Of a stretch of 64,000 bases of DNA, positions 3,686 to 36,642 are shown in pieces. Position numbers and translations under genes: made by a program. The stretch spans positions 1,054,001 to 1,118,000 of the forward strand of contig JAGIQG010000043.1 of assembly GCA_024679065.1 (NCBI GenBank), given 5' to 3'. The DNA comes from Sphyrna mokarran (taxonomy: Eukaryota). The first letter of the stretch is position 1. Each line of letters starts with the position of its first letter. The notes below the pieces were generated by a model. It was not told the DNA's origin, searched no databases, and worked only from the letters and a program-made list of their open reading frames with translations.

Positions 3686-3741
3686 TTATTCTGTACATGT
3701 GAGGCCTGTACATGTCAAGGCCTCATCACTTCTTGCATGGC
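3686..3741 (-). CDS. VJ-C1 antigen-receptor-like gene, copy A: cytoplasmic exon (GHARSDEALTCTGLTCTE*)
   Basis: Poly-T acceptor ttttcttctaaacag at 3742 and above; phase 1 keeps the frame from the TM exon; TAA at 3688-3686. Confidence 0.6.
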
Positions 3742-3874
3742 CTGTTTAGAAGAAAAAAAAAAATCGGGCTAAATTGCCATATATCATACATTTCATCCAC
3801 AGGATCAATAATTCAGAAGTAAATGGGAGGATTTAAGATGCCACGTGGTTGGAGAGTCTCCGCACAATCCTTAC

Positions 3875-3994
3875 CTCTCTTCCGAGTCCTGCAGCTCCAT
3901 CTCCCAGTCACACAGACCAATCCCAGAAGGAGTAGCGCCACGGCCAACACCCACCTTGAAATTGAAACAATGCATAGCGTTGTTACCGGAAAAT
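3875..3994 (-). CDS. VJ-C1 gene copy A: stalk/transmembrane exon (DFPVTTLCIVSISRWVLAVALLLLGLVCVTGRWSCRTRKR)
   Basis: Acceptor tttttctttttcag, donor AG|gtaag, 120 nt, phase 1-1; hydrophobic stretch followed by basic stop-transfer residues RTRKR. Confidence 0.8.
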
Positions 3995-4721
3995 CTGAAA
4001 AAGAAAAAAAAATAACTTTCAACTCCAGTTACAATTTTGGAAAACATAGATAAGTGATCACTTTGACCAAAACTGCCTGTCTATTTCCCGAAAATGATCA
4101 TGTGCCGTCATGTGATGGAGCAGAGACGTTGCTGAACATTTTTTTTTCAATAGGAAACAGGGGAGAGAGAACGAGAGAGACTGATTGCGACTGAGAGAGA
4201 GCCAAAGTCGAAAGGTCATCGTTCAGTGAGAGAGGAAGTGACAGATACATTTGAAAGGAGTAATTCTGAGATAAAAGAGAGCGATAGAGCAGACACATTA
4301 GACAGAATTCTTTCAGTTGGACATACATAACTGGTCAGATATAAGGGACACGTTAAGGAAACATATATAAAAACAGAGCACCCGACGTTAGAATGTTTTG
4401 AGACAAATAGCTGGCTATTTAAACGGAGCACCGTTAAACTGGACGAATCAGGCAAGAGTGAGAAAATTACATATATCAATAATTAGAGTCCGAGAAAAAA
4501 AATATAGATGGTGACAGTGAGATAAGAGAGAACGTGGTTGACACATAAATGCTCTACGCCAACTAGGGATAGACATTGAATGCTGGAGATACATCAACGT
4601 CCATGTTCCAGGAATGAATAAAGAAGAAAATCGTGACCGGAGTTGAAAGGAGGGAAAGGAGAAGGCGGGTGGATTGCGGAGAGATAGAGTGTTTAATACT
4701 GAGCGACACAGGGAGAACAGA

Positions 4722-6660
4722 GAAATAGAACATAGAACATAGAACATTACAGCGCAGAACAGGCCCTTCGGACTTCGATGTTGCGCCGACCAATTAGGAA
4801 AAAGCAATGACCCTCTAACCTAAACCATTCCCTTTACGTCCATAAACTTATCTACTAACCTCTTAAACGCCACCAAACTTGGCGCATCTACAACTGACGC
4901 AGGCAGGGCATTCCATACCCTTACCACCCTCTGGGTAAAGAACCTACCTCTGATATCCGTCCTATAACCACCACCCTTAATTTAAAGCTATGTCCCCTCG
5001 TGCTAGCTTTCTCCATCCTAGGAAAAAGGCTATCACTGTCCACCCTATCTAAACTCTAATCATCTTATATGTTTCGATTAGGTCCCCTCTTAGCCGCCTC
5101 CTTTCTAACGAAAACAACCTCAAATCCCTCAGCCTCTCTTCATAAGAACTGCCCTCCATACCAGGCAACATCCTGGTAAACCTCCTCTGTACCCTCTCCA
5201 ATGCCTCCACATCTTTCTTATAATGTGGGGACCAGAACTGCACACAATACTCCAAGTGCGGCCGCACTAGAGTTTGTACAGTTGCAACATGACGTTGCGG
5301 CTCCGAAATTCAATCCCCCTACCAATAAAAGCTAATACTCCATATGCCTTCTTAACAAACTTATCGACTTGACTGTCAACTTTCAGGGATCTATGCACAT
5401 ATACATCAAGATCCCTGTGTTCATCAAAACTATTAAGAGTCCTACCATTAGAACATAGAACATTACAGCACAGAACAGGCCCCTCGGCCCTCGATGCTGC
5501 GCCGACCAATACAAACAGCAATGCCCCTCCAAACCAAACCACCTCCTTCTCCTCCATACACCCACAAACCAAGCTCCCAAACGCCACCAAACCTGGCGCA
5601 CCCACAACCGCTGCAGGCAGGGCACTCCACTCCCGAACCACCCTTTGGGTAAAGAACCTGCCTCTGATATCCGTCCTATAACTATCACCCCTTAATTTAA
5701 AGCTGTGTCCCCTCGTGCTAGCTTTTTCCATCCTAGGAAAAAGGCTATCACTGTCCACCCTATCTAAACCTCTAATCATCTTATATGTTTCGATCAGGTC
5801 CCCTCTTAGCCTCCTCCTTTCTAACGAAAACAACCTCAAATCCCTCAGCCTCTCTTCATAAGACCTGCCCTCCATACCAGGCAACATCCTGGTAAACCTC
5901 CTCTGTACCCTCTCCAATGCCTCCACATCTTTCTTATAATGTGGGGACCAGAACTGCACACAATACTCCAAGTGCGGCCGCACTAGAGTTTTGTACAGTT
6001 GCAACATGACGTTGCGGCTCCGAAATTCAATCCCCCTACCAATAAAAGCCAAGACTCCATATGCCTTCTTAACAACCTTCTCGACCTGACTGCCTACTTT
6101 CAGGGATCTATGCACATACACACCAAGATCCCTCTGTTCATCTAGACTACTAAGAATCCTACCATTTGCCCTATACTCTACACATTTATTATTTCTGCCA
6201 TAGTGCATTACCTCACACTTTTCCACATTAAACTCCATTTGCCACCTCTCGGCCCAGCTCTGCAACTTGTCCAAGTCTCTCTGCAAACTATAACACCCCT
6301 CTTCACTATCTACCACTCCACCGACTTTAGTGTCATCTGCAAATTTACTAATCCATCCTTCAATACCCTCATCCAGATCATTTATAAAAATTACAAACAG
6401 CAGGGGCCCCAAAACAGACCCCTGAGGTACACCACTTGTCACCGAACTCCACGATGAATATCTCCCATCAACCACCACCCTCTGTCTTCTATCTGCTAGC
6501 CAATTCCTAACCCAATTAGCTAAATCACCCTCTATCCCATACATCTGCATTTTCTGCAGAAGTCTTCCATGGGCCACCTTATCAAACGCCTTACTAAAGT
6601 CCATATATACCACATCAACCGCCTTACCCCCATCCACCTCCTTAGTCACTTTTTCAAAAA
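4722..6660 (-). mobile_element. Two head-to-tail 5'-truncated CR1 LINE copies (6660->5450 and 5449->4722)
   Basis: RT motifs MDFSKAFD, GVPQGSVLGP, FADD and HLEYCVQFWSP; two separate 3' tails at about 5450 and 4722. Confidence 0.9.
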
Positions 6661-8032
6661 AAAAAGCCCGAGAGTCTGCACATTTGTTATTCAAATGGTG
6701 AGAATAGAGAAAAAAGAGAGGGAGTGATATGCAGGAAGTCGGCAAGCTGACTGCATAACAGATTATTATACATAAACAACATGAACCGAATAATAGAGGG
6801 AGAGAGAAGATGAATAACGCTAAGTTAAGCAAACGGACAGATACATCAAATGGTATGTGCTGCTTTGTTCAACTGTGATAGTTCGAAGTAGAGACGAAAG
6901 ATTGTATCAGTCATTACATATAGGTATGATTTGATAACGTTATGCGATGAAAATGGAATCACACATTTCATTTCAACCCACGGCATCATGGGCCACCGAC
7001 TTCCAACCCTTTTCCAGATGCCGCTGGAGCATGGCTGTTTCTTGCCAACTGCCCCCGGAATACCCATTACTTCTGTCATTGACTTTCGTGCTATTCTTTT
7101 AAAACTTAACTCTAAATCTCTCATACTTCCTAGAAATCTTCATATACGACTGTAGTGTTGTATGTGGCATTATATGTTACATGATGCTGCTATTCCTTTC
7201 TTTCTCCCACATGACGATGTAAATGGTAAATTTTGCCTGTGCACCGTGCAAGAAACAACACCTTTCACTCAATCCCATACATATGAGTGTAATAAATCAA
7301 ATCTAAGAACTCTACGAACGGTATAATTTTTGTTTGTATAAGAAAATATACTTTTCAATGTGGCTCAATAAATGGGACAATAACAAAATCAAATTAACTC
7401 AACTCTATGTACCCTGTCATGGTGTGTGTTTTTTTTTTGTTTCTGTGTCACGCGCATGAAACAATGCTTTTCACTGTACCTAAAAACATATGAGAATAAT
7501 AGATAAAATCTATGCACTCTGTGAACTTTATGTCTTATCGGCACAGCGCAAGAAAATGTGTTTTTTCACTGCATCCCAAATACATATGACAATAATCAAA
7601 GCAAAGCGAATCCATGTGTTCTATCAGTGGTATGTTTTGTCTTTGTAATGCGCTTAGATCAAAATGTTTCACTGTATCCCATTACATGTGAAAATAATAA
7701 GTGATCCCATATCAACACGGTGGAGCCATACATAGAAATGGGAAATTGGAGCAGGGAGAAGGCAGTCCACTTTTCGATGCTTCTCTGGCAATTTATACAA
7801 ATGGCTAATTCTATCTCAATCCTAAACATGAACAGTTCTCTGATAAAGGGCAGATTAAATTTTCAACAGACTGAACTCAAACCAAATGAGAGATTTGAGA
7901 CAGTCAAAAATGTTTTGGATTTACGTGGAAATACAGTGGAGAAAGGGGCATGTTATTCCATTAGACAGCTCTGCAGAAAGTCTGACATTCGCATTAAATC
8001 GGTGGGTTTATTAGGACATTGTGAATAGCTAC

Positions 8033-8338
8033 CTTTCTGAGATGAGACACTTTTGCTGAAAATACTTTCTTCGGGGTTGATCTGAAGGGCGCAAGTGCAG
8101 CGAGCGCCGCTTCTCCAAGTTTCCGCCGGGGGACTGATGTAACTGCTGAAGGTGTAGGTGCCGTCCGGTTCTATTGCCCCCGAATCGGTCAGTCCCGTGG
8201 TATCCCGCCCAGAAACATCCCAGCGGACGGAAATGGAATCAGGGGACAATCCTCTGATCAAACACAGCAACGGGACCCTTTCCATGACGGGAATCTGATG
8301 CTGTGGCGGGGTGAGGAGGGTTACGGTGGGAGAATCCA
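8033..8338 (-). CDS. VJ-C1 gene copy A: Ig C1-set domain exon
   Basis: VDSPTVTLL..VPLLCLIRGLSPDSISVRW..DGTYTFSSYI..W..CTC; acceptor aatacag, donor AAAG|gtagc, 306 nt, phase 1-1. Confidence 0.9.
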
Positions 8339-8439
8339 CTGTATTCGGCAAAACAGAGAGAGCCCATTAACAGATAGACCAGGACGCGTTTCAATTGCGA
8401 TTGAAATGTTTACTTCAAGGGAAGAGTGACAAAAATTAC

Positions 8440-8778
8440 CTCTAATTATTAACTTGGATCCATTTCCGAATACCAGTGGTCCCTTTTTCAGATGGCGGAT
8501 TGCACAGTAATACACCCCAGAATCATTTCTCCGCGTATCTGTAATCAGCAGTGAATACACAGCCACTGTTTCAGAATTCATTGTTGACAAGGCTTGGTTT
8601 TCCTCGACGTACTTGTCATGAATGGGAACCAATTTTATTTTGTTTCGCTGCGATTGCGTATACCAATAGACTCCAGTAGCTCCTGACTCCCGGACATAGC
8701 AGTTCAGCTTAACAGGGCGCCCCTCATGAAGTGTCTCAACCGATGGAGACTGGGACAAGATAGAATGAGATAATATGA
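8440..8778 (-). CDS. VJ-C1 gene copy A: V-set domain exon with germline-joined J (FGNGSKLII)
   Basis: SQSP..KLNC..VYWYTQ..YSLLI..DSGVYYC..FGNG in one 339-nt phase 1-1 exon; acceptor ccttctcag, donor AGAG|gtaat. Confidence 0.92.
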
Positions 8779-9224
8779 CTGAGAAGGAGAGAAAGAAAGA
8801 ACAAGAGTCATTATAAGTTGTCCTGCCTGAAAACAGCCCTCGTCAAATAAATACCAATGTAGTGACAAATCGAGAAACAACGATAAAAAAGACGAGGTGC
8901 CCAGCACAGGAACACTTAAAATCGCGCTCACTATTGTGTTGTTTGCGCTGTTTTCTTCAGTGAGCAAACTAAGACTATTCACCAGAAAATCTATTGTAAA
9001 CATTTAAGTTCATATATGGGAACAGTAAGGATTAAATATATGGAAGTACTTCAGAATACACTGCTATTTTGTCCCATCCAACACATGTTGACCTTTTTTT
9101 TTCTCTGCTGACTTCGGACTCTTGACTTTTCTTCAAGTGTTTAGAATGTCAGTTAAAAGACAACAACACCCACCCGCTCCGCAATAGTGTAAATGAAGCC
9201 AAATGACTTATTTGATAACAATGA

Positions 9225-9558
9225 TCTGGACTATCTGATGGGAAACACGACAGCTCAGTGACTATGTCTCTGCTGTGTAGATACATGGATTTGGGCCTGT
9301 GTCTGTGGGAGTTTGCGCATTCTCCCCGTACTTGCGTGGGTTTTCTCCGGGCGCTCCGGTTTCCTCCCACATCCCAAAGATGTGCTCTGAGGCTAATTGG
9401 CAAAACAAATTCTCCCTAAATTGTATTAAATTTGGTTTTTAATCCATAGATCTATAAACATGGACAGGGATCGTGTGTAGAAGTGGGAACATCGAGGTGG
9501 TGGCGCGGGTCGTTGGGCCGAAGGGCTTGTTTCCCGTGTTGTTTTGTTCTTTGTTCAA
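9225..9558 (+). mobile_element. V-domain-containing retroposon 3' fragment in intron 1 (mirror 62785-63118, minus)
   Basis: GGAGTTTGC..TTCTCCCCGT..GCGTGGGTTT..CTCCGGTTTCCTCCCACA core followed by a GGGCCGAAGGGC..(TTGTTCT)n tail. Confidence 0.75.
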
Positions 9559-9869
9559 TTGGTCACTCTCCCTCTTCTTTCCCATAATATCACAACTAAT
9601 CTTGGTCCCTTGATTCATTTCACCAATCCCCCAATTTTTAAAGTTTCTATTGAATCTGCTTTCACCACCTTTCAGAAAGGACGTCCAGATGATAACAACT
9701 CAATGCATTAAAGAAAAATGCGTTCAGTACCCCCTCCTTACAATTATCGATCATCTTCCATATTTTTTTCCTATGGTTATTAACTAAACTTGAATTGGAA
9801 ACTGTTCACTGTTAATGAGCAAATTTAAATTCTTCTCCACTCTATCTGAATATAATGAGGATATCTCAC

Positions 9870-9912
9870 CTTGGAACAGATGGAACAATGCGCAGATGCC
9901 GAGGAAACTCAT
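9870..9912 (-). CDS. VJ-C1 gene copy A: leader exon (MSFLGICALFHLFQ)
   Basis: ATG in a gcaATG context, hydrophobic peptide, 43-nt phase-1 exon ending CAAG|gtgag; splices in frame to the V exon. Confidence 0.8.
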
Positions 9913-9999
9913 TGCCCTTGACCCAAACGGCGAGACTCTGAGTCCCCGGTCCGAATCTCACTGAAAACTCGCTCTTTTTCTCTCTGCGTGAGGGAGTGT

Positions 10000-10090
10000 G
10001 AAATTTCCGTCCTGTGTGTGTTAATAAACATGCGATTGTGGTTGAAAAAATGCACCAAGGCAGACAGCTGTCTGTCGTTTTCCTGTTTAT
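10000..10090 (-). promoter_or_regulatory. Putative TATA-less lymphoid promoter (mirror at about 62255-62345)
   Basis: About 90-175 bp upstream of the ATG: ETS-like GGAA cores (10004-10009, 10080-10085), RUNX site TGTGGTT (10037-10043), E-box CAGCTG (10065-10070). Confidence 0.4.
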
Positions 10091-10629
10091 TAATTGTCAA
10101 TGTGCTGGCGTAGCTGAACATGCTTTGCTAAATACCATAGGTATCTACTCAGAGTAGTTAAGTCAAACTTGGAGAGCAAAGCACGGTTCTTCAAAATCCG
10201 GTGAGGTTAAAGAAACAATTGGAACGTTATTCTAAGGATTTCCCAAATGTTCTAGCAAAACTGATAGCTCCAAAATATCAGGGAATATTGAATAGAGTGA
10301 AGCCAGTTTCTGTAAAATAAGTGGAGATTGAGGCTTGACAGGAAATAGATGCTGCAAGTATGAAATTGTTGAAAGGACACATGTATGATTTCAAATGAAT
10401 TGGTCACCTGATTAAAATAGCGACTAATAAATGTAATTGCGAACTCAGAGATTGGGTGAAATATGATCAGATTTAATGTAAATGTACTTGATTTATTATG
10501 GTCCCATGTATTAGGAAAAAGTGCATAATATTGTTTCCTGCACGCTATTCAAACAAACACAAAATATCCATCGAGTTCACACATTTGTTTTAATTTTGTC
10601 ACAGGCATTGATGATGGCACGTTGATGGT

Positions 10630-10830
10630 GGCACGGTCTCAGAATGGTTACCACTGTTGCCTGGCAGTTGGCGTGACCTGGTTTCGATTCCCAGCAGGGG
10701 TCACTGTCTGTGTGGAATTTGAACATTTCTCTCTGTACCTGCGTGGGTTCGCTCTATGTACACTGCGTTTCTCCCACAGTCCAAGAATGTGCCGGTTAGC
10801 TGGATTGGCCGTATTAATTTGTCCCTGGTG
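10630..10830 (+). mobile_element. HE1/V-SINE-like tRNA-derived SINE (mirror 61513-61713, minus)
   Basis: GGCACGG..TGGTTA head, B-box-like GTTTCGATTCC, V-domain core. Confidence 0.7.
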
Positions 10831-10844
10831 ACAGGCAGAATTGA

Positions 10845-11395
10845 TGTAGAGATGCCGGCATTGGACTGGGGTAAACTCAGTAAAGTTTCACAACACCAAT
10901 TTAAAATCCAAACAATTTATTTGGTAGTAAATTCGCCAGCTTTCGACACTATGTGCCTTCGTCAGGCAAATGCAGTGTTCTGGTCTGCAATGGCACTCAT
11001 ACCAACACAGACAGTCATAGATTGCTGATTAGAATGCGAATCCTTACATCTAACCTGTTATTCAAGTGTTAAAGTGGCGAACAATGTGTGTGAAGGGAAT
11101 CCTGAGCATTGGTTAGAGAATTGTGTATTTTCTGCAGACAGCACAGTAAGTGAGTTTTTTTGCTAACCCAGGCAAGTTACGGGGGTTACAGATAGTGTGT
11201 CATGAAGCCAAGATCCCTACTAAGACCGTCCTCATGTGTGCGGAACTTGGCTATCAGTCTCTGCTCAGCGACTCTGCGCTGTCGTGTGTCCCGAAGGCCC
11301 CCTTGAAGAACATTTACCCGCAGGTCGGAGGCCGAATGCTCATGACTGCTGAAGTGTTCGCCCACAGGAAGGGAACTGTTTTGCCTGGTGACCTG
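10845..11395 (-). mobile_element. Penelope-like element 3' fragment (GIY-YIG C-terminus plus terminal repeat)
   Basis: Minus-strand translation SLPVGEHFSSHEHSASDLRVNVLQGGLRDTRQRRVAEQRLIAKFRTHEDGLSRD; hammerhead-like core at 10938-10966. Confidence 0.75.
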
Positions 11396-12329
11396 TCAGA
11401 GTAAATACATGGGATTTCGGGGATAGCGCCTTGGTGGGATGTGGGCCGTGCGCACTCGAAGTACCGAAAGACCTCCTTTTGCACTGCAGGGGTTCGATCA
11501 TCTGTATTCTGTGATCTATGGTCTGATTTCATTCATTATTATCACGTGTATTAGTATGCACTGAAACGTGTTTTTTTTTCTCATGTCTTATATGGACAAA
11601 ACTAGCCGTTCATAGAATACATGGGGGAGAAGGAAATGAAAGGATGCAGGATAAACTTTTCCAGTATGGCTCAGGTGTACAGAAAGATCAGCTTAAAATA
11701 TGGCAGGCGCATCCAAAACGCTGTTGGCAGGCAAGCAGGGAAGATGCTGTTTCGGAGACTGTTGATACGTGGTTTCAGAATTTTCTATTGTATTATCCGC
11801 GGCAAAAAGTTGGAAGAATGTGGAACACACTAGAACAGGAAATGAGTGAGATGAAATGAATTCAATGGAAAAGCGGTGGGAAGGCAGCAGGGAGAAAAAA
11901 GAAAGAACGCTGTGTTGAGAGGGTGATAGGAAGAAGCATTATGATGAGATATGTATGAAATATTAATTACGGCACCGAGCTGATGGGCCGAATGATCCCC
12001 TTCTGTCATTTGCACCTTACGCATTGTAATATATGAATATGTGCAAGGCACACTAAACATAAACCAAGAGGGATCCCAAACAATTTAGGAAGAAATTTTA
12101 TTTTTGGGGATTTATGAGCGTGCTTGATGTAACAAATGCGTTCTGCAAAATACAATGCTTTTGCAATGTTTTTAATAAGTTCTATTCTCGTGAGGGATGT
12201 TGCTTTTGTTTCCAGGTGAGATTTCGATTGATTGTGTTTTGGCTTTGTTAAGGTTTGTGCTATCTGTGGAGTGTCAGTAGTTGGTGTTGATGCCTGGAGT
12301 TCAAATAAATCAAAATCTCTTGATTATGG

Positions 12330-13775
12330 AGCACGTTGGGAAGGGGGAAAGCTGGAAGACCATACGGCATGGGAGCAGAGTTCGGCCACTCGGCCCATTG
12401 AGGCTGCTCCGCCATTCATTCTTGTTTCATCCCCATTCTCCCGCCTAATCCACTTATTAATCAAGAATCAATCTGTTTGTGTCTTCAAGGAACTCAACGA
12501 CCTGACCTCCACAGTTTTCTGTGGGAAATAGTTCCACAGATTCACAATGCTCTGGCTGAAGAAATCACTCGACATCTCTGATCTAAGGTCCTTCAGTCTG
12601 AGGTCTAGTTCGAGCTTTCCTACTGGTGGAAACATCGTGTCCACTACAACGGCCCCCCAATATCATTTAAGTGCCAAAAAGATGGAACATAGAATTTAGA
12701 ACATTACAGCACAGTACAGGCCCTTTGGCCCTCGATGTTGCGCCGACCAATCAAACTAATGTTATGACCCTCTAACCTAAATTAGTCCAATGTTATCCAT
12801 ATGCCTATCCAATGGCCATTTAAACGCCCTTAATCTTAGCGAGTCCACAACTGCTGCAGGGATCACCCCTCATCCTTCTGAACTCCAAAGAGTTCACACC
12901 TAGAGTCCTCAACATTTCCTCATAGCACAAGCTTATTATTCCAGAGATAATTCGCATGAAACTCCTCCGGAACCTTTGTAAGACAGCATATCCTTCCTTA
13001 AATATGGGACCAACAATGCTCACAATACTCCAAAAGTGGTCAGACCACAGCCATATCCAGTCTCAGAAGTGCATCCCTGATCTTGTATTTTATCCCACTC
13101 GAAATAGACACGAACAAGTCTTTTGCCTTTCTGACTATTAAATGAAGCTACACGTTAACCCGAAAAAAAGCTTGAAAAAGGACTGTCAAAGCTCGTGTTT
13201 TTTTTTCTGATTTCTGAAGCGTTTCCTCATTTAGGAAACAGCCTCTGCCTCCATTCCTCCTTCGAAAGTGCATAACGGCACATTTTGTCACATTGTATTC
13301 CAGTCACTGCTTCTATTGCCACTCTCTTAACCAATCCGTCATTCTGCAGCTCTCTTCCCCCGCTTCATCCACACTACTTGACCCTCTACATATCTTTGTA
13401 TCCTCTGCAAACTTAACAACAGTGCTTTCAGTTCCTTCTTCCAAATCGTTAATGTATATTGTGAAAGTTTGTCATGCCAGCACCGAACTCTGAGGCACAG
13501 CATTAGTCACCGGCTGCCATCCTGAAAAAAGTTTCTTTCATATTCAATCTCTGCCTTCTGCCAGCCAGCCAGTCTTCTATCCATGCAAAGATGTTACTCT
13601 ATCACTCAGCCAGTTGAAAAATTCGCTGGGTCCCATGAGCTGTTATTTTCTTCAACAGCTTCTCATGTGAACCGTTTCAAAATTCTTATTGAAATCCATG
13701 TCACTGCCCGCGACTACTTACCTAGTCACCTCCTCAAATTAAAACAGTCGAAGTCGTGTGGCATGATTTCCCGTT
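12330..13775 (-). mobile_element. Degenerate CR1-clade LINE with a younger LINE tail nested at about 12685-12860 (mirror 58567-60012, plus)
   Basis: IYINDLEEG..VKFAEDTK remnant; nested AGAACATTACAGCACAG tail. Confidence 0.7.
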
Positions 13776-14014
13776 GAGAGAAAAAAAACATGCTGAGAAT
13801 CCTTTTCTTAATCTTTACCTCCCCAAATGGAAATTAGTTCTGTCACTCAAACTTTTTTCCCTCCAGTTTCCTTACCAAAAGAGCTCGGCTCAATAGTCTT
13901 TAATTCTTTCATTCTTCTCCGGACAATAACATCTGTTTTGTCAACCAGCACCGAACATGTTTTTTTTTATTAATTCCCTTTTCAATACTGAAGTTCCAGA
14001 TCAGAGAGCTTGGC

Positions 14015-17000
14015 AAAGAACAACAAAGAACAAAGAGCAACACAGCACGGGAAACAGGCCCTTCGGCCCAACGAGCCCGCGCCGCCGTCCTAACGTCTTA
14101 ATGACATATCCATGACTTTAGCTATGCCTATTGTGGAACATTCCCATATAGGGACCAATATACGGACAATTTGTTACCCAATCAGCGTAAGAGCACATTT
14201 TTGGGATGTGGGAGGAAACCGGAGCACCCAGAGAAAACCCACGCGACCACGGGGAGAACGCGCAAACTCCTGCAGACACAGGCCCAAATCCATGTATCTG
14301 TACAGCAACAGCGATAGTCTCTGAGCTGTCATGTTGCCCATCAGATGGTCCAGTTTAAGCATACACTAACGACTTGAAGCACTAGGCCACTCCTGAAGTA
14401 ACATCCAAGAGCAGCCCTCGCACGACCTGCCGTATGCTTGCACCTTGTTGGTCAACAAGGTGGACCGAATTGCCTGTGGAATCAAATAAGATATTTAGAC
14501 AGTCCTGCTATATCCCTCTATCTGCAGAACGCTCATGTGGCTGTCCAAGAGACCCTTAAACAACCCTAGCGTGCCTGCTCCCACCACCTTACTCGGCAGT
14601 GCATTCCACACCCCCACTACCCTTTGTGAGAAAAACTGCCCTCTAATATTCGTCTTATACATAGCCCCCCTCACCCTAAGGCCATGACCCCTTGTTCTAT
14701 CCATTTCTAATGGTGGAAAAAGCTTACCACCATTTACTCTATCTATACCCCTTATAATCTTATATACCTCTAATAGATCCCCTCACAGCCGACGTCTTTC
14801 AAGGGAAAACAACCCCAGTGTGTTCAATCTTTCCTCGTAAGACAGCCCTTCCATACCAGGCAGCATCCTGGTAAATCTCTTCTGCACTCACTCCAAGGCC
14901 TCCACGTCCTTCCGGTAGTACGGCGACCAGAACTGGACGCAGTACTCCAAGTGAGGCCTAACCAACGTTCTATACACTTGCAACATCACACTCCTACTCT
15001 TGTATTCTATACCCCTTCCTATGAAGGCTAACATACCATACGCTATCTTTATCACATTCTCCACCTGTACTGACACCTTCAGAGACTTCTGAACCTGCAC
15101 CCCCAGGTCTCTCTGCGTCTCTATACTCCGGATAGTTTTACATTTTATCCTATAACTCCCCTCTACATTATTCCTGCCAAAATGCATCAGCTCACATTTA
15201 TTCGGATTAAATTCCATTTGTCATCTATCTGCCCAATCTACCAGCCTATCTATGTCCTGTTGTATTGTCTGGCACTGCTCCTCAGTACCCGCCAATCCAA
15301 GCATCTTAGTGTCATCAGCAAATTTGCTGATCACAACACCTACCCCCTCTTCCAAGTCATTTATGTAAACCACAAATAGAATAGGTCCTCGTACTGAGCC
15401 CTGTGGCACATCACTAGTGACTGACCTCCAGTTGGAAAAATAGCCTTCCACTACTACACGCTGTCTCCTCCTCCCAAGCCAGTTCTCAACTCACCTACAT
15501 ACCTAGCCCTGTATCCCATGCGCCTTAATCTTTTCTATCAGCCTACCATGAGGAACCTTGTCAAACGCTTCATTTACTGAAATCCATGTAGACGACATCA
15601 ACGGCTTGTCGTTTTTGTCACCTCTTCAAAAAATTCCACTAGATTCGTAAGGCACGACCTCCCCTTAACGAAGCCATGCTGCGTATCCCTGATCAGATTG
15701 CAGCGCTGAAGATGCTCATACATCCTGTCCCTGAAGATCCTCTCCATTAGCTTACCTATAACTGAAGTCAAGCTCACCGGCCTATAGTTCCCTGGGTTAT
15801 CCCTCTGTACCGTCGTAATGATTATTTCCTTTAAGGGGTCCTCAAATTTCTCAAAGCCGGAACCAGACATCAGGCCCCTTTCCTGCATGAATACAGACGC
15901 AAAGTATTCATTCAGGATCTCCCCCATTCCCTAAGGTCCAATCTTTCCTCTAACCATCTTTTTGCTCCTTACACAGGAGTAAAATGCCTTAGGATTTTCC
16001 TTAATCCTACCTGCCAAAGCCATTTCGTGGCCCCTTTTTGCCTTTCTGACACCCCTTTAAAGATCCCGTCTACACTCTCTATATTCTTCCAGCGCTGTCT
16101 CTGTCCCCAGTTGCCTAGGTCTAACGTACGCCTCCCGCTTCTTCCTGACTAAGCCCTCAATATCCCTAGTTACCCACGGTTCTCTAATCCTACCTTTCCC
16201 ATCCTTACTCCTTACCGGCACTTGTCTTTCCTGCAAAGATTTTAGTTTTCCCTTGAAAGGCTCCCACATGTACAGCGTCGACCTACCCTCGAACAGCTTA
16301 TCTCAGTCTGTATCCTTAAGATCCTGCCTAATCTGGCTGTGTCTAGCCCTCCCCCAGTTTAACACCCTCCCGTTAAGGAAGGCTTCATCATTTTCCATTA
16401 ATATCCTAAAGCAGACAGAGTTGTGGTCACTATTTGACACATGCTCTCCTACTACAACGTCAACCACCTGCCCTGGCTCATTCCCCAGAACCAAATCCAG
16501 CATAGCCCCCTCTGTAGTCGGGCTATCCACATACTGCTCCAAGGACCCTTCCAAAACACAGTGTACAAATTTCTCCCCGTCCACACCTTCCGCTCTGAGC
16601 ACCTTCCAATCTACCGCAGGGAAATTGAAATCTCCCCCTACAACCAGCCTATTCTTCCTACACTTATCTAAAATGTCCCTGCATATCCCTTCTTCCACGG
16701 CCCGCGGGCTGTTGGACGGTCTGTAGTACACACCCAACATAGCAACCACTCCCTTCCTATTCCTCAACTCCACCCATAGCGACTCAATTCCTAAATCATC
16801 CATACCACCCTCCCTCTGCACTGCTATGATGTGATCCTTAACTAATAACGCCACTCCCCCTTCTCTCTTCAAACCACCTCTGTCATGCCTAAAACACTTA
16901 TAGCTTGGAATATTCAATTGCCAGTCCTGCCCCTCCTTTAATCACGTCTCAGTCACCGCCACCACTTCTAACTTCCTCGTGAACATTATTACCTTCAGTT

Positions 17001-18075
17001 CATCTGTTTTGCCAGTCACATTCCTCGCATTAAAACACATGCACTGAAGACCCTCAGGCCCTCTCTGATCCTCCTTCCTACCCTCTGGACTTACCCTGTC
17101 ACCCATCTCTCTCCCTCTCCCAGTTCCCTCTGTCTCCCCACCCACCCTCCATATTAGTTTAAACCCTGCCAAAACACTCCAGCTAACCTCCCAGCTAAAA
17201 TATGGGTGCCCTTCCTAGACAACTGTTCCCCGTCCCTCTTGTATAGATGCCCCTCCCTCATGAAGAATTCCCAATGGTCTATGAATCTGAAACTCTCTGC
17301 CCTACACCAATCCCTCAACTACGCATTTAGTTGGAGTACCTCATTATTCCTAACTCTATCAGTCCCGGGCATTGGCAGCAGCCCAGAGAATGCCACCCTG
17401 GAGGCCCTACACTTCAGCCGATCCCCTAACTCCCTGAACTGCCTACGTATGTGCCCCCTGCACTTTGTTCCTACATCCTTCTCTCCTACGTGAACTATTA
17501 CATCAGCCTTAGACCCTCCACCCTTCAAAATTCCCTCTACCCTCTCTGAAACATCCTGGACCCCTGCTCCAGGAAGGCAGACTACCATCCTGGAGTCCCG
17601 CATTTGCCCACAGAACCGCCTGTCGATCCCTTTGACCTTAACTCCCCCACCACCATCTCACATCCCGCATTCCTGCCGTCCTCCGGGGCATTCTGATCCC
17701 CCTCCGTTGCCCTCTCTACCTCAGCTTTTGCCCTACCCTTGATATTCTGGGATGCCTCCTCTGAGGTGATCTTAATGCCGTGACTCCTTTTCTTTTTCCA
17801 CTTCCTATCTGTAACCCACCCATCCCTCCTCCTAGGCCCTGGGGTCCCCTCAGGACTATGGTCCCTATTCATTATCCCCTCATTCTCTCTGACTAAAAAC
17901 ATATCTTCCAATCTCAGCTCCAGCTGCCTCACCCGAGCCCTCAAACGTTGCAACTCTAAACTCTTTGTGCAAATGTGGGCTTTCGGGAGACGTGCTGCAT
18001 CCAAGAATGCCCACATATGGCAACGAACACAGTGGACGCGTTTATTCAAGGACCCTGACATTTTCTAGACCCCCT
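14015..18075 (-). mobile_element. Near full-length but decayed CR1 LINE (ORF1 zinc finger/zipper plus esterase; ORF2 APE plus RT)
   Basis: ORF1 CVRCHMW..LRARVRQLE and VCLPGAGVQD..VHVG; APE FNAR..VTET, GDFNFP, SDH; RT FADD; internal stops and one internal deletion. Confidence 0.9.
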
Positions 18076-21000
18076 TTAGCGTATTGAACACAGCTTGGCG
18101 TATTGAAATATTACTGAGTGACTTTAAACCACATCAGGAGCAATAAAGCTTCACAATGCCTTGTAAAAATTCCATTTTCACCTTCAAATATATGGTTTTG
18201 ATTATCCTAAGCTGTTTTCTTTACAAGAACGAGAGAAGTTTCAGCCATTTCGAGGGAAATCTGATATTGAAAACACAAAATCAGTTTAATGTGAATCCCT
18301 CACTCTCCCGTCAAATATCAGTTTGTACTTTTAAAGTCATTTTGTAATTATTTATGTTGACCACCTATGAAAGAAATATACTTTACAATATTCGCTGGAA
18401 ACATTTGCACTGAAGTGATACAGCTCCACCTATGGGCAAATTCGTATTTGCACGAGGGCCATGAGAAAGGAGGTCAGGAAACATTTGATACGATTGACTG
18501 AAGCGTTAGTCATTCGGCAGCCAGATGTTATACCTCAATAATATATTCCCCGTGATTTTAGTTCGCTTGAATTCTGAGCCAAGATTTAGCACTTCTGCCT
18601 TACAGCGTCAACAATCCAGGTTTGATCCCCCCTTGGGTCACTGTCTGTGTCGGTGTTTTCTCTGGGTGCTCCCGTTCTGTTCAACAGTCGAAATACTAGG
18701 TGAATTGGCTATGCAAATTCTCTCTCAGTTAATGCGAATATGTGTCGGAGTATGGTGAGTCACAGCTGTTGGAATTTGAAAAATTGCAACATGTTTCTTG
18801 TTGAGGAGGTGAATACAAGTTACAAAACAGGTATCTGAAGTGAAAATAAAGATCAGCCACAATGTGACTACAAGATAGAATATTCTCGAGTTACTGAATA
18901 TATCCCCTCTCCGATGTTTGAGACCACGTGACATTGTCTCTTGGGCAAGCACTGAAATGAAGTACTGTTTTCCTGACTCGGGTTTGCAGGTCAGATATAA
19001 CAAAGTTTCATTTTCTATGCCCTTGCACTGATTGCAATGCCGGATTTTGTTTTCTATCCCTGAAACGAGCGATTCGCTGGTACTGTTCTGGTATCTGAGA
19101 TAGGCAATACCAGATATAGACGGTTAGTCACCTGCGGGGGAAAAAAAATACAGTGATCGATCACATTGTCATGTTCACCATTGATTAAATTCGATTTTAA
19201 TATAATTCGTTAATTAATTTCATTTACATTTATCCATCTGTCGGGCTTGTATTTGCAATTATCCATCTTGAAATAATGACTAACACTTGCCACTCAAGTG
19301 AGTGTCTCTTAGTGAATATTTTCGGCTGGTGTGGGACAACTCTATAGTTCCTAACACACAGTGGACATTGTGATTCCCTCTGCATCGGTTGGACACCTCG
19401 ACTCTCTCCAGGTGGCCTCCATTTAAGACATGAAGTGCTTCCATCTTGCGGTCCTGCATGTCTCTGGCCTTTCCAAAATTGATTATGCTTGCATGTGAAC
19501 AGAAACAAAAAACGTCTGAGATTTTTTGAACAGTGGTCGTGGACTCATCCACTTCCCAGAGGAGCAGAACCTCCCAACGGATATATTGATGATTGTTTCC
19601 CATGATCAGCTGCAAACCATTCATTCTTTCACCATGAAATTCTGATTATAAAAAGTAGGTATTGGCTTCATTTTCTGCGTGGCTTACTCGCTCAGTGTTC
19701 TAACCCTACAATTCCGCTCTTCCAGGGGATGACTGATGCAAAGGGATGCAGCACCACCGAGGACGATACAATATTCGTGGGCTGCGGTAACTCAGAGGAC
19801 TGGAAGGACTGTTGAAAATGCACTTTTTCAGAGAGCACCGGCTGCTGTTAAAAATGGCGAACGATAAACTTCAGAACGGTGCGAATTATGGCTCAACGTT
19901 TGCTCCTCATAAGGTAAGACCCTCAGTCTGCAACGTTAAATATTTACTAGCGCCTGCCAAATACACATGAAAACTCGCCCCAATTATGTTGAAAAGGCAA
20001 TCTTACTCAATTCAGCAACAGGACTGTTTCTGGAATGAATTCGAATGGGCACAGGAGGCAGCAGAATGTTGCATTGAATTAATTCCAAACACCCTACTAT
20101 ATTTTGTTTTAAGAAAACACGTACCCAATGAAGAACGATTCAAAATGCTGCAAATAACTTTGTAACGGTTTCACTCAACATATTTCTCATTATGTCTTTG
20201 TGTCATGTTTGCGTCATAATTCACCTCTTGACTAGCGGGCTGTGGGCCATCTATTCTGGGCTGACGGTTAAGTTTCACAGGAATTTCCTCCCACTTCTAC
20301 ATAACAGCCGCCAGTCTCCAACATCCTGGTAGTTATTTCTGTTGACTCCACACGAATAGAAGTAAACTGTTTGCGTCGAACCTGACTTATTTTTCATATC
20401 TTTAAAGTTTACATTGTCTCCCCTTCCCACTTTCAGCCTTGTCTTTCTTGGAGGACAAATCGTTACCAATTCAAAGCTTGCTCTGACTATTACAATTGTC
20501 AGATTAATTTTGTCCATGTTCTGACACAAACAAACATTTCTGCGTGGTATTTTTTCACCCGTGCTTTCAGACATCCGCGAACACAAGCATGTAAATATCT
20601 GACATTGCCAGCTCAACAAAAATCGCAGTATCACAAAGAAGATATTGAATTATACGTTTACTGTTTATCAAGATCAAGACAGACAAAATTTATACAGATA
20701 GAATAATAAATTGATATTCACGCTTCAACATTTGCAAAGATGTATAGTTCCTGTGAACAATTTGAGAGGTACAATTGTCTGAATATTTTCAATGGAATTC
20801 AGGAAATTTTCTTAGCCTCGCTCAATGCTTCTTCAAATTTGAAGAACACCGTTCCAATGTAATATCCAAAACACAACGTCCAATCATTTGCAGTGAAAAC
20901 TGGATCCTCCCTTTGGCGAATGCAGGGGGAAATTTCAGTTGTTTGAAGGGAATCCCTATTGGTTTCATATTGTTTCCAAGACGCTATGGGATTTTCGAGA

Positions 21001-22019
21001 AATCTTCCTTCTGGCAGGGGCGTAGTCAGGTCACACTAAAAGAATCACAAATTATAGAGACATCGTAGATTCCCTACAGAAGGTCTTCAGCCGATATATA
21101 TTTTAGATTACCCCGAACCGTCAACGCGTTGCATAACATCATAGAATGATACAGCTCAGAAAGAGACTATTTGCCAATTGAATCCATGCTGGGTTTTTGT
21201 TGGATATGTTTCTATGACCAGTTGACAGAGATGATAATTGCATATCGGAACTTTCACCCCCTAGTCCAAAAAATGGGAAAAGGAGGGCTTGCAAAGTCGG
21301 TCTGCCAAGCGCTCCCACACTCCACCTTGCTACACTTTTACGAGTCCATTTGGAACTTATTTCCCTCCACGTATTCACGTCACCTCTGAACTGATTACGA
21401 AAAATCACAAGCATACAACTCTCAAATCTTCCAACTGTGCCATTATTAAATATGGTCAAAGAACAATCTGCCTCAAATCTTCACTGTTGAAAGGCACTCC
21501 CCACAAACTGGCAATCTTTTTTGCCTTCAGTTTTTGTTCCCAACCTCTCAATCAAATGGCAACCACAATATGGTAGTTCTGATCCCATGTTTTGCGGAGT
21601 TTGGCAATAATCGTCTCGTGACTATCTTGTGGAAGAGTCACGTGCTTAGCAGTCAGAGATAATTTACTGTCTTACTGGTTAGTAAACTCCATAGAAATTT
21701 CAAATATATTCATCACATAAGATTACACTTTAATTAAAGTGCAGTTGCACTCTCTACACAGTTTATTTTGGTGAAATGTTGGCTCATGTTAGGGTATGAC
21801 AGCAGATCCGAAAAAAAAACTATCCACAGATATTGTTGCAGTCTTGAAGATATCTGCTTTCATTTTCCGTTTTAACCCTAATCACAATTAATAGGTTATT
21901 TCAGTGGCAGATGGTGCATAATATTGAAAAATGCAAAACTTTCCACTCAAGAGGAAAGATCCGAGAGTCAAGGTATTTTTCAAACTTGAAGGGTTGGGAC
22001 ATTCTGATATTCCAGTCTG

Positions 22020-22385
22020 AGCTGCACAGTGGCACTGTGGCCAGCACTGCTGCCTCGCTGCCGCGGGGATACTGCTTTAAATACATCTTTGGGTGACCCA
22101 TCTATGTGGAGTTTGCACCTTATTTCCCTTCTGCGTGGGTTTTCACCAGTACTTCAATTTCCTCCTCCACATCAAAAATGTGCTGTTGAGATCGATGACC
22201 ATTCTTATTTGCCCTTCAATGTCCGAAGATGGACAGGTTAGATTGATTTCCCCTGCCGAATTGCCCCTTCGAGTTACGAAGATTAGAAGGGTAAATACTA
22301 GGTTTACGGGAAATGGGCTTGGAGGGGGTTGCTGCCGGTGCAGCTCCGTGAGACAAATGCATAGTCGGGATTCTACGATTTTATA
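22020..22385 (+). mobile_element. Old HE1/V-SINE-like copy (mirror 49957-50322); paralogous copy at 32250-32610 (mirror 41350-41710)
   Basis: GCACAGTGG..AGCACTGCTGCCTC head and GTGGAGTTTGCAC core. Confidence 0.65.
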
Positions 22386-25300
22386 ATTCAGATAGCTTGA
22401 ATGTTCTTGTGCAGTCCAGAGGTTTATCAGAAGGTATTCAAGCAGTTTGGAAATCCATTATACGGTTCGTATTTATTGTAATGTTGGGTGTACTTCTTGA
22501 GATCGAAGAGCAAGAAATCCATGTTGCAAACAAACCGCAAGTCACTGAGATTATGCCAAGAATGCTGAGTGCCGTTTAGTTGTCTTTAACTGAGGAAAGC
22601 TGCGTTTGCATTTCAGGTAAGATTTCGATTGTTTGATTTCTGGCAGAAAAAAAGGCTTGTCCGATCTGGAGAGAGGCCTTAGAATGGATCGACATTAGTT
22701 GCAGTTCAGAAGAGTATTGTTATTAAATGATAAAATTCAAGCTGGGATCTCAGGAATAAGATTCAGAACTTGTTTGTGCCTCGCTGCGGAGTCTTGAACA
22801 GCGCGGTCATAGTCTCAAGATAAAGACTGAAATTAGCGGACAGTTCTTCATTCATAGATCTGCGAGCATTTGAGATGTTCTGCTCCAGGGAATTTTGGTT
22901 GTTCAATCGTCGGGAACATTGAAGGCAGAAATTCGCGTTCGCGAGGAATCAAGTCAATATGAAGTTAATGTCGAGTCAGATTTTAGTTGTCTGATGGAGA
23001 AGAACGTAAGTCTTTATTTAACATAATTCAGTATGTTAAACTCACGTGATTGTTACAATTCCTCGCCCTGACCACACAGTGCCGCTTGAAAATGCCTTGC
23101 CTGAGTCAGTTGTAGATGCGCCAAGTTTGGTGGCGTTTAAGAGGTTAGTAGATAATTTTATGGATGAAAAGGGAATGGATTAGTTTAGAGGGTCACTGCT
23201 TGTTCCTAATTGGTTGGCGCAACATCGAGGGCCGAAGGGCCTGTTCTGCACTGTAATGTTCTATGTTCTATGAACATGCCCATGCATTTCTCTATTATTC
23301 AGTCCTCCCGAAGGGAATTATTGCCTATTCCCTTTTCGTTTCTCCTTTTCCCTTACCTTGTCAAACACTCGACACTTTCCCATGCATAGAGTTGTGTCCA
23401 CCATTGATTCATGATGACAAGTCATTTATTTAAATCAAAAAGCCAAAAGAAGGCATGCTCAGAATGGAAAGGGGGTGGAAATTCTTATTGGTGAGGGTTC
23501 TTCACGAGTCTGATCCTGATGCAGTTCTTTGCTGGATGATGAAAATTGTGGAAACAAATGCCGCCATTGACTATCTAATTGAGAAAATGTCTGGCTGATG
23601 TCCAAAATATGGTTGGCACCAGTATTTGGTTTTGCATAGGAGAGCACAGAGTTATTAAAAAAGAGCAAACAACAAAGCAGCATGGGAAACAGGCCCTCCG
23701 AGCCAAAGAGTCCGCGCTGCCACCTCGACGTTCTCACTTCCACCCATGATCCTTGTCTATGTTTATAGAAACCTGCATTGGTATAACAATCTGCTTTGGA
23801 ACCAAATCTGTGAGACAATTCAGGGAGAATTTCTTCTGCCAATCAGCCTAAGAGCACGTCTTTGGGATGTGGGAGGAAACCGAAGCACCCGAAGAAAACC
23901 CACGTTAGCATGGGGGGGAATGTGCAAACTCCCACAGACACAGTGCCAATTCCATGTATCTGCAGAACACAGTGAGAGTCACTGAGCTGTCGTGTTGCCC
24001 ATGAACTAGTCCAGTTCCAGCCTACAGTAACGACGGGAAGTGCTAGGATACGATCGAAAAATCCAAGAGCAGCCCTCTCACGATCCATCGCGTGCATGCC
24101 CCTTGTTGGACACCAAGGTGGACCGAAATACCTGTAGGATAAAACAGAAAAAGATCAATATCATTCATAATGTGCTCCATTCTCAGGGAACTCTTAAGGC
24201 TCATGATCCCTATTTTAAATCAGTCTTCTACATCCGTCCATCCCCATTCTGTACTGTGCCCATCGAAGTATTTCAAAACTAACTCCAGCGTGCCTGCCTC
24301 CACCATCTTACTTGGCAGTGTCTTCCATACACCCACAACCCTCTGTGTGAAAAAAAAAAACTCTCTATAGCATCCGAATTATATCTTACCCCTCTCACCC
24401 TACGGCCGTGAACCCTCGTTATATTTGATTCCAACATAGGAAAACGCTTACCACTGTTTATTCTATCTGTACGCCTCATTATCGTGTACACCTCTTTTGG
24501 ATCTCCTGGCAATCTTTCGAAAAAAAATCAGCCCCAATTTGCCGACCCTCTCCTTGCAACACAGTCCTTCAATGCTATGCAGCATCCTGGTAAACCTCCT
24601 CTGCACTCTCTCTAGAGTGTCCACGTCCTTCTAGTAGTAAGATGACGAGAACTGGTTGCAATATTCCAAATGAGATCGAACCAAAATTCTATACACTTGC
24701 AACATTAAAGACCAGCTCTTGTACTCTAAATCACTTCCTATAAAGGTGAGCATATCATATGCTTTCTTCAGAACCTTCTCCACCTGCTCTGCCACCTTCA
24801 GAGACTTGTGCACCTGCACCCCCATGTCCCTCTGCGTTTCTATATTCTTAATAAGGCTACTCTTTACCATGTACCTCCGCTCTAGATTCTTTCTCCCAAA
24901 ATGCATCACCTCGCATTTATCAGGATTGAATTCCATCTGCCATCTATCTCCCAAGCTACCAGCCTATCTATATCCTGCTGTATCACCTGACAATGCTCCT
25001 CACAATCCGCAAGTCCAGCCATCTTTGTATCGTCTGCAAACTTGCTGATCACTCCACTTACTCCCTCTTCCAAGTCATTTATATATATTACAAATAGAAG
25101 TACCGAGAAATATGGTACTGAGCCCTGTAGCACAACACTAGTGACCGGCCTCTAGCTAAGAAAAAAAAACCCTTCCACTATTACTCTTTGTCTCCTATTA
25201 CCTAGCCAGTTACTTATCTATCTAGATACCTTTCTTTGTGTTCCATTAGCCTTGACCTTTTTAACTAACCTCCTATGAGGGACTTTGACCTTGCTGAAAT

Positions 25301-25929
25301 CCATGCAGACGATATAAATGGGTCGCCCTTCATCGGCGTTTTTGTCACCTCCTCAGAAAATTCTACCAGATTCGTAAGGCACGACCTCCCATGAACAAAG
25401 CCATGCTGCCTATCCCTAATCAGATCGCAAAACTCTACCTTATTTCTAAGAATCCCCTGAATCAGCTTCCCTACCACTCACGTCAAATTCACTGGCCTAT
25501 TTGAATACATTCGCATGAGTGCCTTTTCCGAGTCTTTACGTCGCTCGTCGACGTTTTTGTCTACCACTAGCAGATCCCACGCCTTGGGCTCTTGATCTTA
25601 AAGTACCACGGGTAGCACCCCAGCCGGGGTCTACTGAAGTTACCAATTGTTGCCTGCAGACCCCAGCCGGGGTCTGCCCAGGGCATATTTCGTGGCTCGC
25701 AGAGCTCCAGCCGGGGTCTACTGATGTCATTGTGGCTCGGTTGGGCACCCTGAGTGTGTTTAGGGCAGGGTGTGAGCTGGTACCGTCGCCCCCTGATCTA
25801 ATTGGGCGTTTAGAGAACCTTTGTCGGTATTTTCGGTGCTCGGTCCTCTTGCGTGAGGTGGGAAATTTAGAATTTAAGGGAAAATTTTATTCCGAATTCA
25901 GGGAAGCCAGATTAGGTGACGTGACAATT

Positions 25930-26634: not shown

Positions 26635-26650
26635 TATTTGTTTCTCGACC

Positions 26651-30165: not shown

Positions 30166-30544
30166 ATGTAACCATTTTGACACTCCTCTTTCGAATTATG
30201 CTATGCGTACGGAGTAGCAAAATGCCCTCCCGGGAGTGAATGAATGTCAGCTTTCACTTTGACAAATAATAACAAAGGCAGGTCGTTTCTTAAATGAGAA
30301 ATTGGCAATTGTGACCAGACAACGGGGCCTAGTTATCTTTGCTCTTGAGTTACAACATGTGGGTGTATAAGCAAGTCGGAAGGTTCCCAAGGTTTGGAAA
30401 ACTTCATCGCCAAGGCACTTATGCACACTTGTAAGGGTTTCATTGATGTATATATATATAGGTTTGCCCACATGGTTATTGTTCATATTATTACCACGCA
30501 TAATTAATCTCTAGATATGCACCTACTTTCTTTTTGTTTAGCTT

Positions 30545-30892
30545 CAGACATGGGGGTGTCTAGTTGCTGAGCATTTCTTGTACCTCATTAGTTGCCCCAG
30601 GGCAGTTGAGACTCAACAACATTGCTGTGGCTCTGGAGTTCAATATAAGACAAATTTGGTAAGGATAGAAGATTCCTTTCCATAAAGGGTATTAAAAAAA
30701 CATTTTTTTTTTGTTTTTTAATAGTCGACAATGGTTTAACGGACATCAGTAGATGTTTAGTTGCACTTGCTTCTTTTTTTCTTGAATTCAAATTCCACCT
30801 TCAGCCATGACAGTATTCGAACCCGGGTCCCCAGAATATTAGCTGAGTTTCTCGATTACTAGTGAGAATGCCACTCGGCCATCGTCTCGCCT
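30545..30892 (-). mobile_element. tRNA-derived SINE, SacSINE1/Deu-like (mirror 43063-43410, plus)
   Basis: GATGGCCGAGTGG A-box, GGGTTCGAATAC B-box, GGTGGAATTTGAATTCAA body; family assigned from memory of shark SINE consensus sequences. Confidence 0.55.
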
Positions 30893-36419: not shown

Positions 36420-36642
36420 AACTCCAGAACGCATCAACACATTAAATGTAATTTGCCATGGCCAATCAACTTGACTTACATATCTTTAGACTATGGAGAG
36501 AAATTGTCGCAACGAGAAGACTCTTGCAGAGACACGGAGAGATTGTGCAACCTGCACTCTGTTAGTGTTCCAAGCCAGGTTCCAAACCCAGGTTCCTTGG
36601 ATCTGTGAGGCAGCAAGGCTAACCATTATGCCACGGTGCCGG
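36420..36642 (-). mobile_element. Degenerate HE1-like SINE (mirror 37317-37550, plus)
   Basis: GGCACCGTGGCATAATGGTTAGCCTTGCTGCCTCACAG head. Confidence 0.65.

Follow-up and report, generated by a model that had tools for sequence, protein, structure and literature searches.

The PRARP pair, reportedly described by Fu et al. in 2019, and Xenopus VJC1, attributed to Ohta et al. of the same year, are said to combine a single-exon VJ domain, a C1 domain, a transmembrane (TM) segment and a tail with a tyrosine motif, to come in two chain types and to have relatives in reptiles and bony fish. PMC10751288 places PRARP in the major histocompatibility complex (MHC), and kin of the RAG-invaded gene have been looked for among non-rearranging VJ-C1 genes (PMC12227049). 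Sharks also carry UrIg and UrIg2, non-rearranging VJ-C1 genes with a split leader; UrIg has 3 C1 domains and nurse shark UrIg2 has 9, and these genes were mapped to the MHC or the antigen-receptor complex (PMC12227049). A different kind of precedent is given by paired opposing receptors (LILRA/LILRB, PIR, NKG2A/C and KLRI1/2), in which near-identical binding exons are joined to opposite tails: a TM arginine with a short tail on one side, an immunoreceptor tyrosine-based inhibitory motif (ITIM) on the other (PMC10679719 and PMC3210942). In such pairs homogenisation is limited to the ligand-binding exons or ectodomain (PMC3210942), and for LILRA the TM arginine and short tail are the rule, the arginine pairing with FcR-gamma (PMC10679719). 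Here we describe a VJ-C1 gene of Sphyrna mokarran, found in a stretch of 64,000 nucleotides (the window; assembly GCA_024679065.1, contig JAGIQG010000043.1, positions 1,054,001 to 1,118,000). Window positions are used throughout, and the focal gene is the five-exon gene at 3686..9912 on the minus strand. With somewhat better than even confidence, we propose from its sequence that it is the activating member of a PRARP-like cluster of paired receptors, in which an inverted twin gene is the predicted inhibitory member.

Set beside these systems, the family of the focal gene has the features of PRARP/VJC1, namely a single-exon VJ without recombination signal sequences (RSS), one C1 domain, a TM segment, in most members a tyrosine-motif tail, two linked chain types and relatives in reptiles and bony fish; it differs from them in comprising at least 70 genes rather than a pair, in having tail-less forms with a TM arginine and in lying off the MHC scaffold of the assembly. 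The likeness to paired opposing receptors lies in the near-identical binding exons with opposite tails, the TM arginine with a short tail against an ITIM, and homogenisation confined to the ectodomain; unlike those receptors, which have C2-type immunoglobulin (Ig) or lectin domains, the shark family has VJ and C1 domains and possibly two chains. Like UrIg and UrIg2, the focal gene has a split leader, but their C1 domains fall outside its clade and there is one C1 exon per gene in the modelled loci of its type. The V-C1 plan, the FGxG motif and the V fold (Z ~15 to V domains of the T cell receptor, TCR) are common to TCR chains and Ig light chains (IgL), and TCR chains have a cysteine before the TM segment as the shark family does. 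The family is unlike both in its absence of RSS, the fixed length of its third complementarity-determining region (CDR3), the tyrosine-motif tail of its own in most members and its separate C1 clade. Judged from these features, the focal gene is not a UrIg or UrIg2 gene, a joined IgL or a TCR chain. It is composed of the following parts:

9912-9870, minus strand: exon 1, split leader, 43 nucleotides (nt), with an ATG and a GT donor; paralogues have the same 43-nt exon
8778-8440, minus strand: exon 2, 339 nt, a VJ domain in a single exon that ends in FGNG, with no RSS
8338-8033, minus strand: exon 3, C1 domain, 306 nt, with the family C-x-C on strand F
3994-3875, minus strand: exon 4, pre-TM cysteine and TM segment, 120 nt, found by a scan for AG..GT segments
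3741-3682, minus strand: exon 5, cytoplasmic, 60 nt (59 in most relatives), with a GT donor; 56 nt (3741-3686) are coding, up to the stop
3134-3094, minus strand: remnant of exon 6, which in relatives carries a TLYARL-type motif resembling an ITIM or an immunoreceptor tyrosine-based switch motif (ITSM); here it is 4 nt shorter and without the tyrosine codon

The five joined exons give an open frame of 287 amino acids and the leader, VJ and C1 exons have canonical AG/GT borders, which bears out the exon structure given in an earlier, sequence-only reading of this DNA. That reading also had V and J in one exon, without RSS and with a V-C intron of 101 nt. FGNG indeed lies within the V exon, the intron length is as given, and a scan allowing up to 4 mismatches found no RSS-like site between the leader and C1; in the same genome it detected such sites next to all 6 split Ig/TCR V segments scanned and next to neither of 2 joined IgL genes. 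The TM exon was kept with its borders in 34 of the 38 loci modelled for this type of gene (type A, below), so that its choice goes beyond chance. A second hydrophobic segment at ~6820-6750 was considered as an alternative TM and rejected, as it showed no conservation as an exon.

Among PDB sequences the V exon is nearest to TCR alpha and IgL V domains, and the C1 exon matches Ig constant domains. An AlphaFold model of the V domain has a V fold (predicted local distance difference test, pLDDT, 83), and its best structural matches are TCR V domains (Z 15-15.6, root-mean-square deviation 1.7-2.3 over 101-105 residues), other V domains following at little distance. The best-scoring PDB rows for V and C1 contain no SIRP chains, which is compatible with a relationship all the same, and the ESM Atlas returned automatic Ig-like names only. 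In the V exon (8441-8776) the C'-D segment of the focal gene, its twin, J013, J015 and J017 differs from that of most of the family and lacks the RFS motif; this subclade stays open in five genes that are up to 17% apart, and its binding surface may be changed.

The exon models of the 38 type-A loci give a typical plan of leader, VJ, C1, TM, a first tail exon and a second tail exon with a T/SxYxxL (TLYARL-type) motif. In the focal gene exon 5 is one base longer than the usual 59 nt, and an early stop at 3688-3686 therefore falls within it; no further tyrosine-motif exon was found downstream within the window. The earlier reading had treated the fifth exon as the last; by descent this exon is internal, and the short tail is derived, because relatives carry the motif exon. 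The ITIM/ITSM-like tail is present in the twin and in most type-A and type-B genes, and the remnant of exon 6 shows that it is ancestral and was lost in the focal copy. In the TM segment Arg-Trp stands where relatives have Gly-Gly, the arginine lying six residues past the pre-TM cysteine. One other gene, J013, ~270 kb from the focal gene, has the same changes in exon 5, exon 6 and TM; the 3' part of the focal gene is 98.4% like it, and the two V exons differ by 15 non-synonymous and 2 synonymous codons.

The window consists of a large inverted duplication that includes the twin:

8344..25499, no strand: left outer arm, with its mate at 46843-64000, 99.6% identical; the identity continues to 6755, where the mate lies beyond the window
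27114..46845, no strand: inner part of the inverted duplication, self-complementary, 96.9%
62431..62473, plus strand: twin leader, 0 differences in 43
63566..63904, plus strand: twin VJ exon, 0 differences in 339
G000:C1027:1118006-1127280, beyond the window end: twin C1, uncharged TM, 59-nt tail exon and TLYAGL exon
4726..6662, strand unassigned: insertion of the long interspersed nuclear element (LINE) type in intron 3, presumably LINE/CR1, with open reading frames (ORFs) like reverse transcriptase and with repeats; it lies near 6755, where the twin identity ends

The twin lies 55 kb from the focal gene and is 99.83% identical to it over 10300-6755, which includes leader, VJ and C1, and ~80% identical thereafter. 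The C1 exons differ at 2 of 306 positions and the TM exons at 15 of 120; thus the ectodomains are 99.8% identical and the TM and tail only ~80% alike, the twin having an uncharged TM and an intact TLYAGL motif exon. The first part of intron 3 differs from that of J013 at 19 of 1273 positions, as little as the 3' part (21 of 2081), so that in the simplest history the twin would have acquired the 5' half of the focal gene. Under either history, as read from the exons, one binding domain is now carried on two opposite types of tail. A piece of 1.6 kb (25499-27114) is found in one arm only. A fold-back artefact of assembly was rejected, because the arms differ (0.4% in the outer part and 3% in the inner, besides the one-arm piece) and because the focal gene and twin have different 3' halves.

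The combination of TM arginine and lost tail is not confined to this gene, and is met again in the same genome and in further sharks and rays. Among the 38 type-A loci modelled, of which 34 have a TM exon, an arginine 5-10 residues past the pre-TM cysteine was found in four (the focal gene, J013, L030 and L042), and none of the four has the motif; of the 30 other TM-bearing loci 24 have the motif exon and 6 lacked it in the modelled stretch, 2 of which showed it later. The four loci represent two events, L030 and L042 being a second lineage, and in both a Gly-Gly was replaced by an Arg/Trp pair, in opposite order. Type B gives a similar picture: L166 and L169 have the arginine and a stop right after the TM segment. 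The inverted twin of L166 is L065, a gene that lacks the arginine and keeps the motif, the two being 99.4% identical over 3.9 kb and 82% thereafter. Near-identical ectodomains on opposite TM and tail types are thus seen both in the focal gene and its twin and in L166 and L065. In the databases the motif is absent from 7 of 7 relatives with the arginine, in seven species, and from 9 of 67 without it (Fisher p=6e-6, uncorrected for kinship; 103 relatives, of which 29 were left out as no TM or anchor was detected), a p value that overstates the case because the rows are related and are gene models. Furthermore, the B genes facing the focal gene and J013 lack the tyrosine motif and the B gene facing the twin keeps it; this matching loss fits an A-B unit, as a single event only.

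The focal gene belongs to a cluster of at least 70 genes of two types, a context that the earlier reading missed. A protein search revealed a second VJ-C1 type (B) interspersed with type A, and scaffold C1027 holds at least 37 type-A and at least 34 type-B VJ-C1-TM positions along 2.2 Mb, a count that excludes identical copies on the small contigs C782, C851-853, C868, C891 and C1404, which are maybe haplotype duplicates. In DNA searches of the same genome, 50 type-A matches came from the best 40 of 58 candidates, nearly all on C1027, and 40 type-B matches from the best 40 of 47; a word-index search with the V exon alone yielded no match from 76 candidates. The two types alternate along C1027 (54 runs against a shuffled mean of 36.5, p=2e-5), and in 9 database assemblies A and B lie on sequences of the same length. 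The CDR3-like segment has 11 residues in all 31 exons scored. A lone head-to-head A/B pair, with tail motifs on both genes, lies at G000:C894:2365021-2395000 (L067-L070 and L083); its A gene is nearest to conserved genes of other sharks, and the pair may be the ancestral layout. Two further observations concern individual members: type-B V domains have an extra pair of cysteines in the C' region, and the type-A gene J015 (G000:C1027:1219000) has an intact leader, VJ and C1, with no TM exon found in ~27 kb downstream, and may encode a secreted form or be a truncated copy.

Of the 93 proteins obtained in a profile search, 87 belong to sharks, skates and rays, and turtles and sturgeons contribute 3 each; the focal gene's named relatives are shark and ray proteins, and the elasmobranch sequences are mostly labelled Ig light or heavy chain-like or uncharacterised. 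The V-C1-Cys-TM-YxxL/V plan is shared by the turtle and sturgeon proteins. The C1 tree, of 65 rows, combined a chosen subset of the family with Ig, TCR-beta, UrIg-like and MHC domains of the same genome, SIRP and the C domains of TCR alpha, gamma and delta lying outside the sample; outgroup labels were set by motif and position, and those of UrIg by position and exon number. In it A, B, turtle and sturgeon sequences form one clade (support 99/95), with A and B as sister clades (97/87), separate from IgL, TCR-beta, IgH and UrIg, and an approximately unbiased (AU) test on 28 rows rejects a grouping of type A with IgL (p=0.0017). In the V tree type A lies outside IgL and TCR, and the deep branches are unresolved. 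That the gene is a VJ-C1 membrane gene that does not rearrange and belongs to neither IgL nor TCR, a claim for which a phylogeny had been proposed as the check, is supported by these results. Its placement in the PRARP/VJC1 group holds in part: the turtle and sturgeon relatives fit, and the family is probably, on sequence and plan, the elasmobranch counterpart of PRARP/VJC1; a special closeness to the ancestor invaded by RAG is unsupported, since neither tree resolves its deep branches. A further single-exon VJ and C1 gene with a GxG motif lies at G000:C335:19167000-19176999 (L109:4589-5122 and 3261-3662, minus strand) and falls outside the family clade in both trees. The supplements of PMC12227049 and PMC10751288 do not list the family gene numbers searched for in them, and our literature search found no account of the elasmobranch expansion, papers in J Immunol and Immunogenetics that may mention shark members lying outside its scope.

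As a germline-fixed VJ-C1 membrane chain that has lost its tyrosine-motif tail and gained a TM arginine, the product of the focal gene would reach the surface, probably disulphide-linked through the pre-TM cysteine to a type-B chain. By analogy with the pairing of LILRA TM arginine and FcR-gamma it would signal via an adaptor with an ITAM (immunoreceptor tyrosine-based activation motif), the arginine pairing with the TM aspartate of FcR-gamma or CD3-zeta. The genome holds two zeta-family adaptor-like TM exons with an aspartate, which from their motifs we take to be CD3-zeta-like and FcR-gamma-like. The twin would recruit SHP-type phosphatases and so inhibit; inverted duplication or gene conversion would keep the two binding domains alike, and the CDR-like loops would diversify under pressure from changing ligands.

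Several results bear on this proposal. All 12 of the A and B proteins that were aligned have the pre-TM cysteine. An A-B complex, whose chains were taken from two other species and folded without alignments, scored 0.59 against 0.00 for the best control, with at least 88% of contacts agreeing between runs and a partner pLDDT of at least 75. The mark used is reached by 51 of 78 solved pairs and 2 of 108 mismatched pairs; scores up to 0.60 include only 5 of the 78 solved pairs and all 4 passing mismatches, so that low passes are more often wrong unless the pair was likely beforehand, and the pass of this model may be explained by likeness to antigen-binding fragments (Fab) and TCR or by memory. 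Taken with the alternation of the genes and the conserved cysteine, this weak prediction suggests a two-chain A-B form. In 18 intact genes the ratio of non-synonymous to synonymous change (dN/dS) was 1.23 in the CDR-like loops, 0.58 in the framework and 0.51 in C1. As to expression, a 250-nt contig from run X1, whose RNA origin is only a guess, agrees with 8588-8780 apart from one difference, a match that takes in all but 57 of its letters, and diverges from the genome at the V acceptor; this departure, as would be expected of a spliced leader, is a hint of splicing. Of 5 runs listed none contained half of the sequence words, and in the reads of 4 of them cover falls almost all on repeats and none on the C1, TM and tail exons, which is uninformative, and the leader exon was outside the stretch compared.

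There are also findings that weigh against an activating role or blunt the evidence for it. The second type-A lineage with the arginine, L030 and L042, is by its sequence a pseudogene because its V exon is frameshifted. The A genes of a second inverted pair, L019 and L034, both keep the motif, and motif loss on both chains is not a rule. Arginine and motif occur together in the B genes L064 and L066, a mid-TM arginine occurs with the motif in the type-A genes J017, L047 and L048, and some of the 9 database proteins with neither arginine nor motif are short models. In L058, the tail-to-tail B neighbour of the focal gene, the motif exon is dead and the first tail exon interrupted, and phenylalanine replaces the first V cysteine in all five local B genes (L057, L058, L059, L060 and L061), including those with an intact tail motif; together these changes could reflect local decay. 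The A-B model was not of the focal gene's own chain, the dN/dS values are simple counts with loops set by eye and no significance test, and the focal gene and twin are identical across the X1 contig and so cannot be told apart by it, J013 differing at 11 of 191 positions.

The focal copy may instead be a decaying duplicate or a non-signalling decoy, its tail lost by chance, its arginine the product of neutral drift and its ectodomain open because the duplication is recent. This is the chief rival and we consider it rather unlikely, though far from negligible. Several neighbours are broken (V or C1 in 7 of 34 TM-bearing type-A loci); the other type-A arginine lineage is a pseudogene, and in the adjacent B gene the tail exons are damaged and the first V cysteine is missing. 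Against this, the leader, VJ, C1 and TM of the focal gene have open frames and canonical borders, as do the VJ, C1 and TM of J013, despite ~20% divergence of the tail region from motif-bearing relatives; the TM exon is more conserved than its introns (15 of 120 differences from the twin against 300 of 1415 in the flanking introns, p=0.025); and arginine and tail loss go together in the seven database proteins, which come from as many species.

It is improbable, in our estimate, that the gene is a paired receptor of a separate V-C1 lineage, SIRP-like or its own, rather than of PRARP, with A and B acting alone or as homodimers. No sequence named PRARP was among the relatives retrieved, PRARP lies in the MHC according to PMC10751288 while the cluster is off the MHC scaffold, and tail type is sometimes mismatched between neighbouring A and B genes; yet A and B fall in one clade with relatives from turtles and sturgeons, which share their plan, the two-type layout matches that reported for the PRARP pair, and the best PDB matches in sequence and fold are TCR and Ig domains. 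Those same matches, to TCR alpha and IgL V domains, would also be expected of a germline-joined IgL or of a TCR chain fixed after a germ-line RAG event, as would database labels such as 'immunoglobulin kappa light chain-like', and sharks do have joined IgL lambda genes (PMC12227049). This explanation is nevertheless largely refuted and extremely improbable, given the separate C1 clade with its AU result, the TM and tail exons of the focal gene, the constant CDR3-like length, the relatives in bony vertebrates and the location of the true IgL and TCR loci on other scaffolds. An activating receptor with a predicted inhibitory twin is the reading that we prefer.

As to position, linkage of the cluster to the MHC, which the sequence-only reading raised for some relatives, was not seen when synteny was checked, since all 53 matches to MHC class I lie on another scaffold, C1548. 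Ig and TCR constant exons are also on other scaffolds, and C1548, C938 and C827 carry the PBX and BRD paralogues. Scaffold C1016, which is not joined to C1027, has one broken type-A copy at its start and carries PSMB4, SELENBP1 and DAP3, presumably genes of human 1q21-22, a region that we take to be paralogous to the MHC; this gene content is a lead to that region. Nicastrin is on C446, so that the human 1q21-23 block is not wholly on C1016, and the first 130 kb of C1016 are mostly repeats and simple-sequence arrays. No credible flanking gene was found among 150 ORFs, 70 of 288 from the 240 kb around the C894 pair and 80 of 198 from the 120 kb left of the C1027 cluster. An ORF at L081:9207-9746 (G000:C894) resembles a retroviral envelope fragment by eye, with no Pfam match, and at G000:C1548:81.0-81.9 Mb, ~4 Mb from the class I genes, there are ~30 kappa-like IgL constant exons with split V segments flanked by RSS.

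The window adds a specific case of a predicted on/off twin whose VJ exon is identical, together with a second such twin on type B. Since TM and tail are almost the only differences between the focal gene and its twin, the two form a natural experiment for signalling, and the diversified innate receptor families of cartilaginous fish, of the natural killer (NK) type, are poorly known; a cluster of at least 70 genes with matched, predicted on/off twins offers directly testable candidates. It is possible, as a tentative and wider picture, that sharks and rays have a germline repertoire of dozens of TCR-shaped two-chain (A+B) receptors, duplicated as A-B cassettes and lying on a chromosome that matches human 1q21-22, in which inverted twins have repeatedly been converted to matched on/off pairs that share one binding site; such a system would resemble NK receptors but use the VJ-C1 plan of the antigen receptor that preceded RAG. 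The cluster suggests that duplication and conversion are enough for a VJ-C1 receptor of two chains to build up a repertoire.

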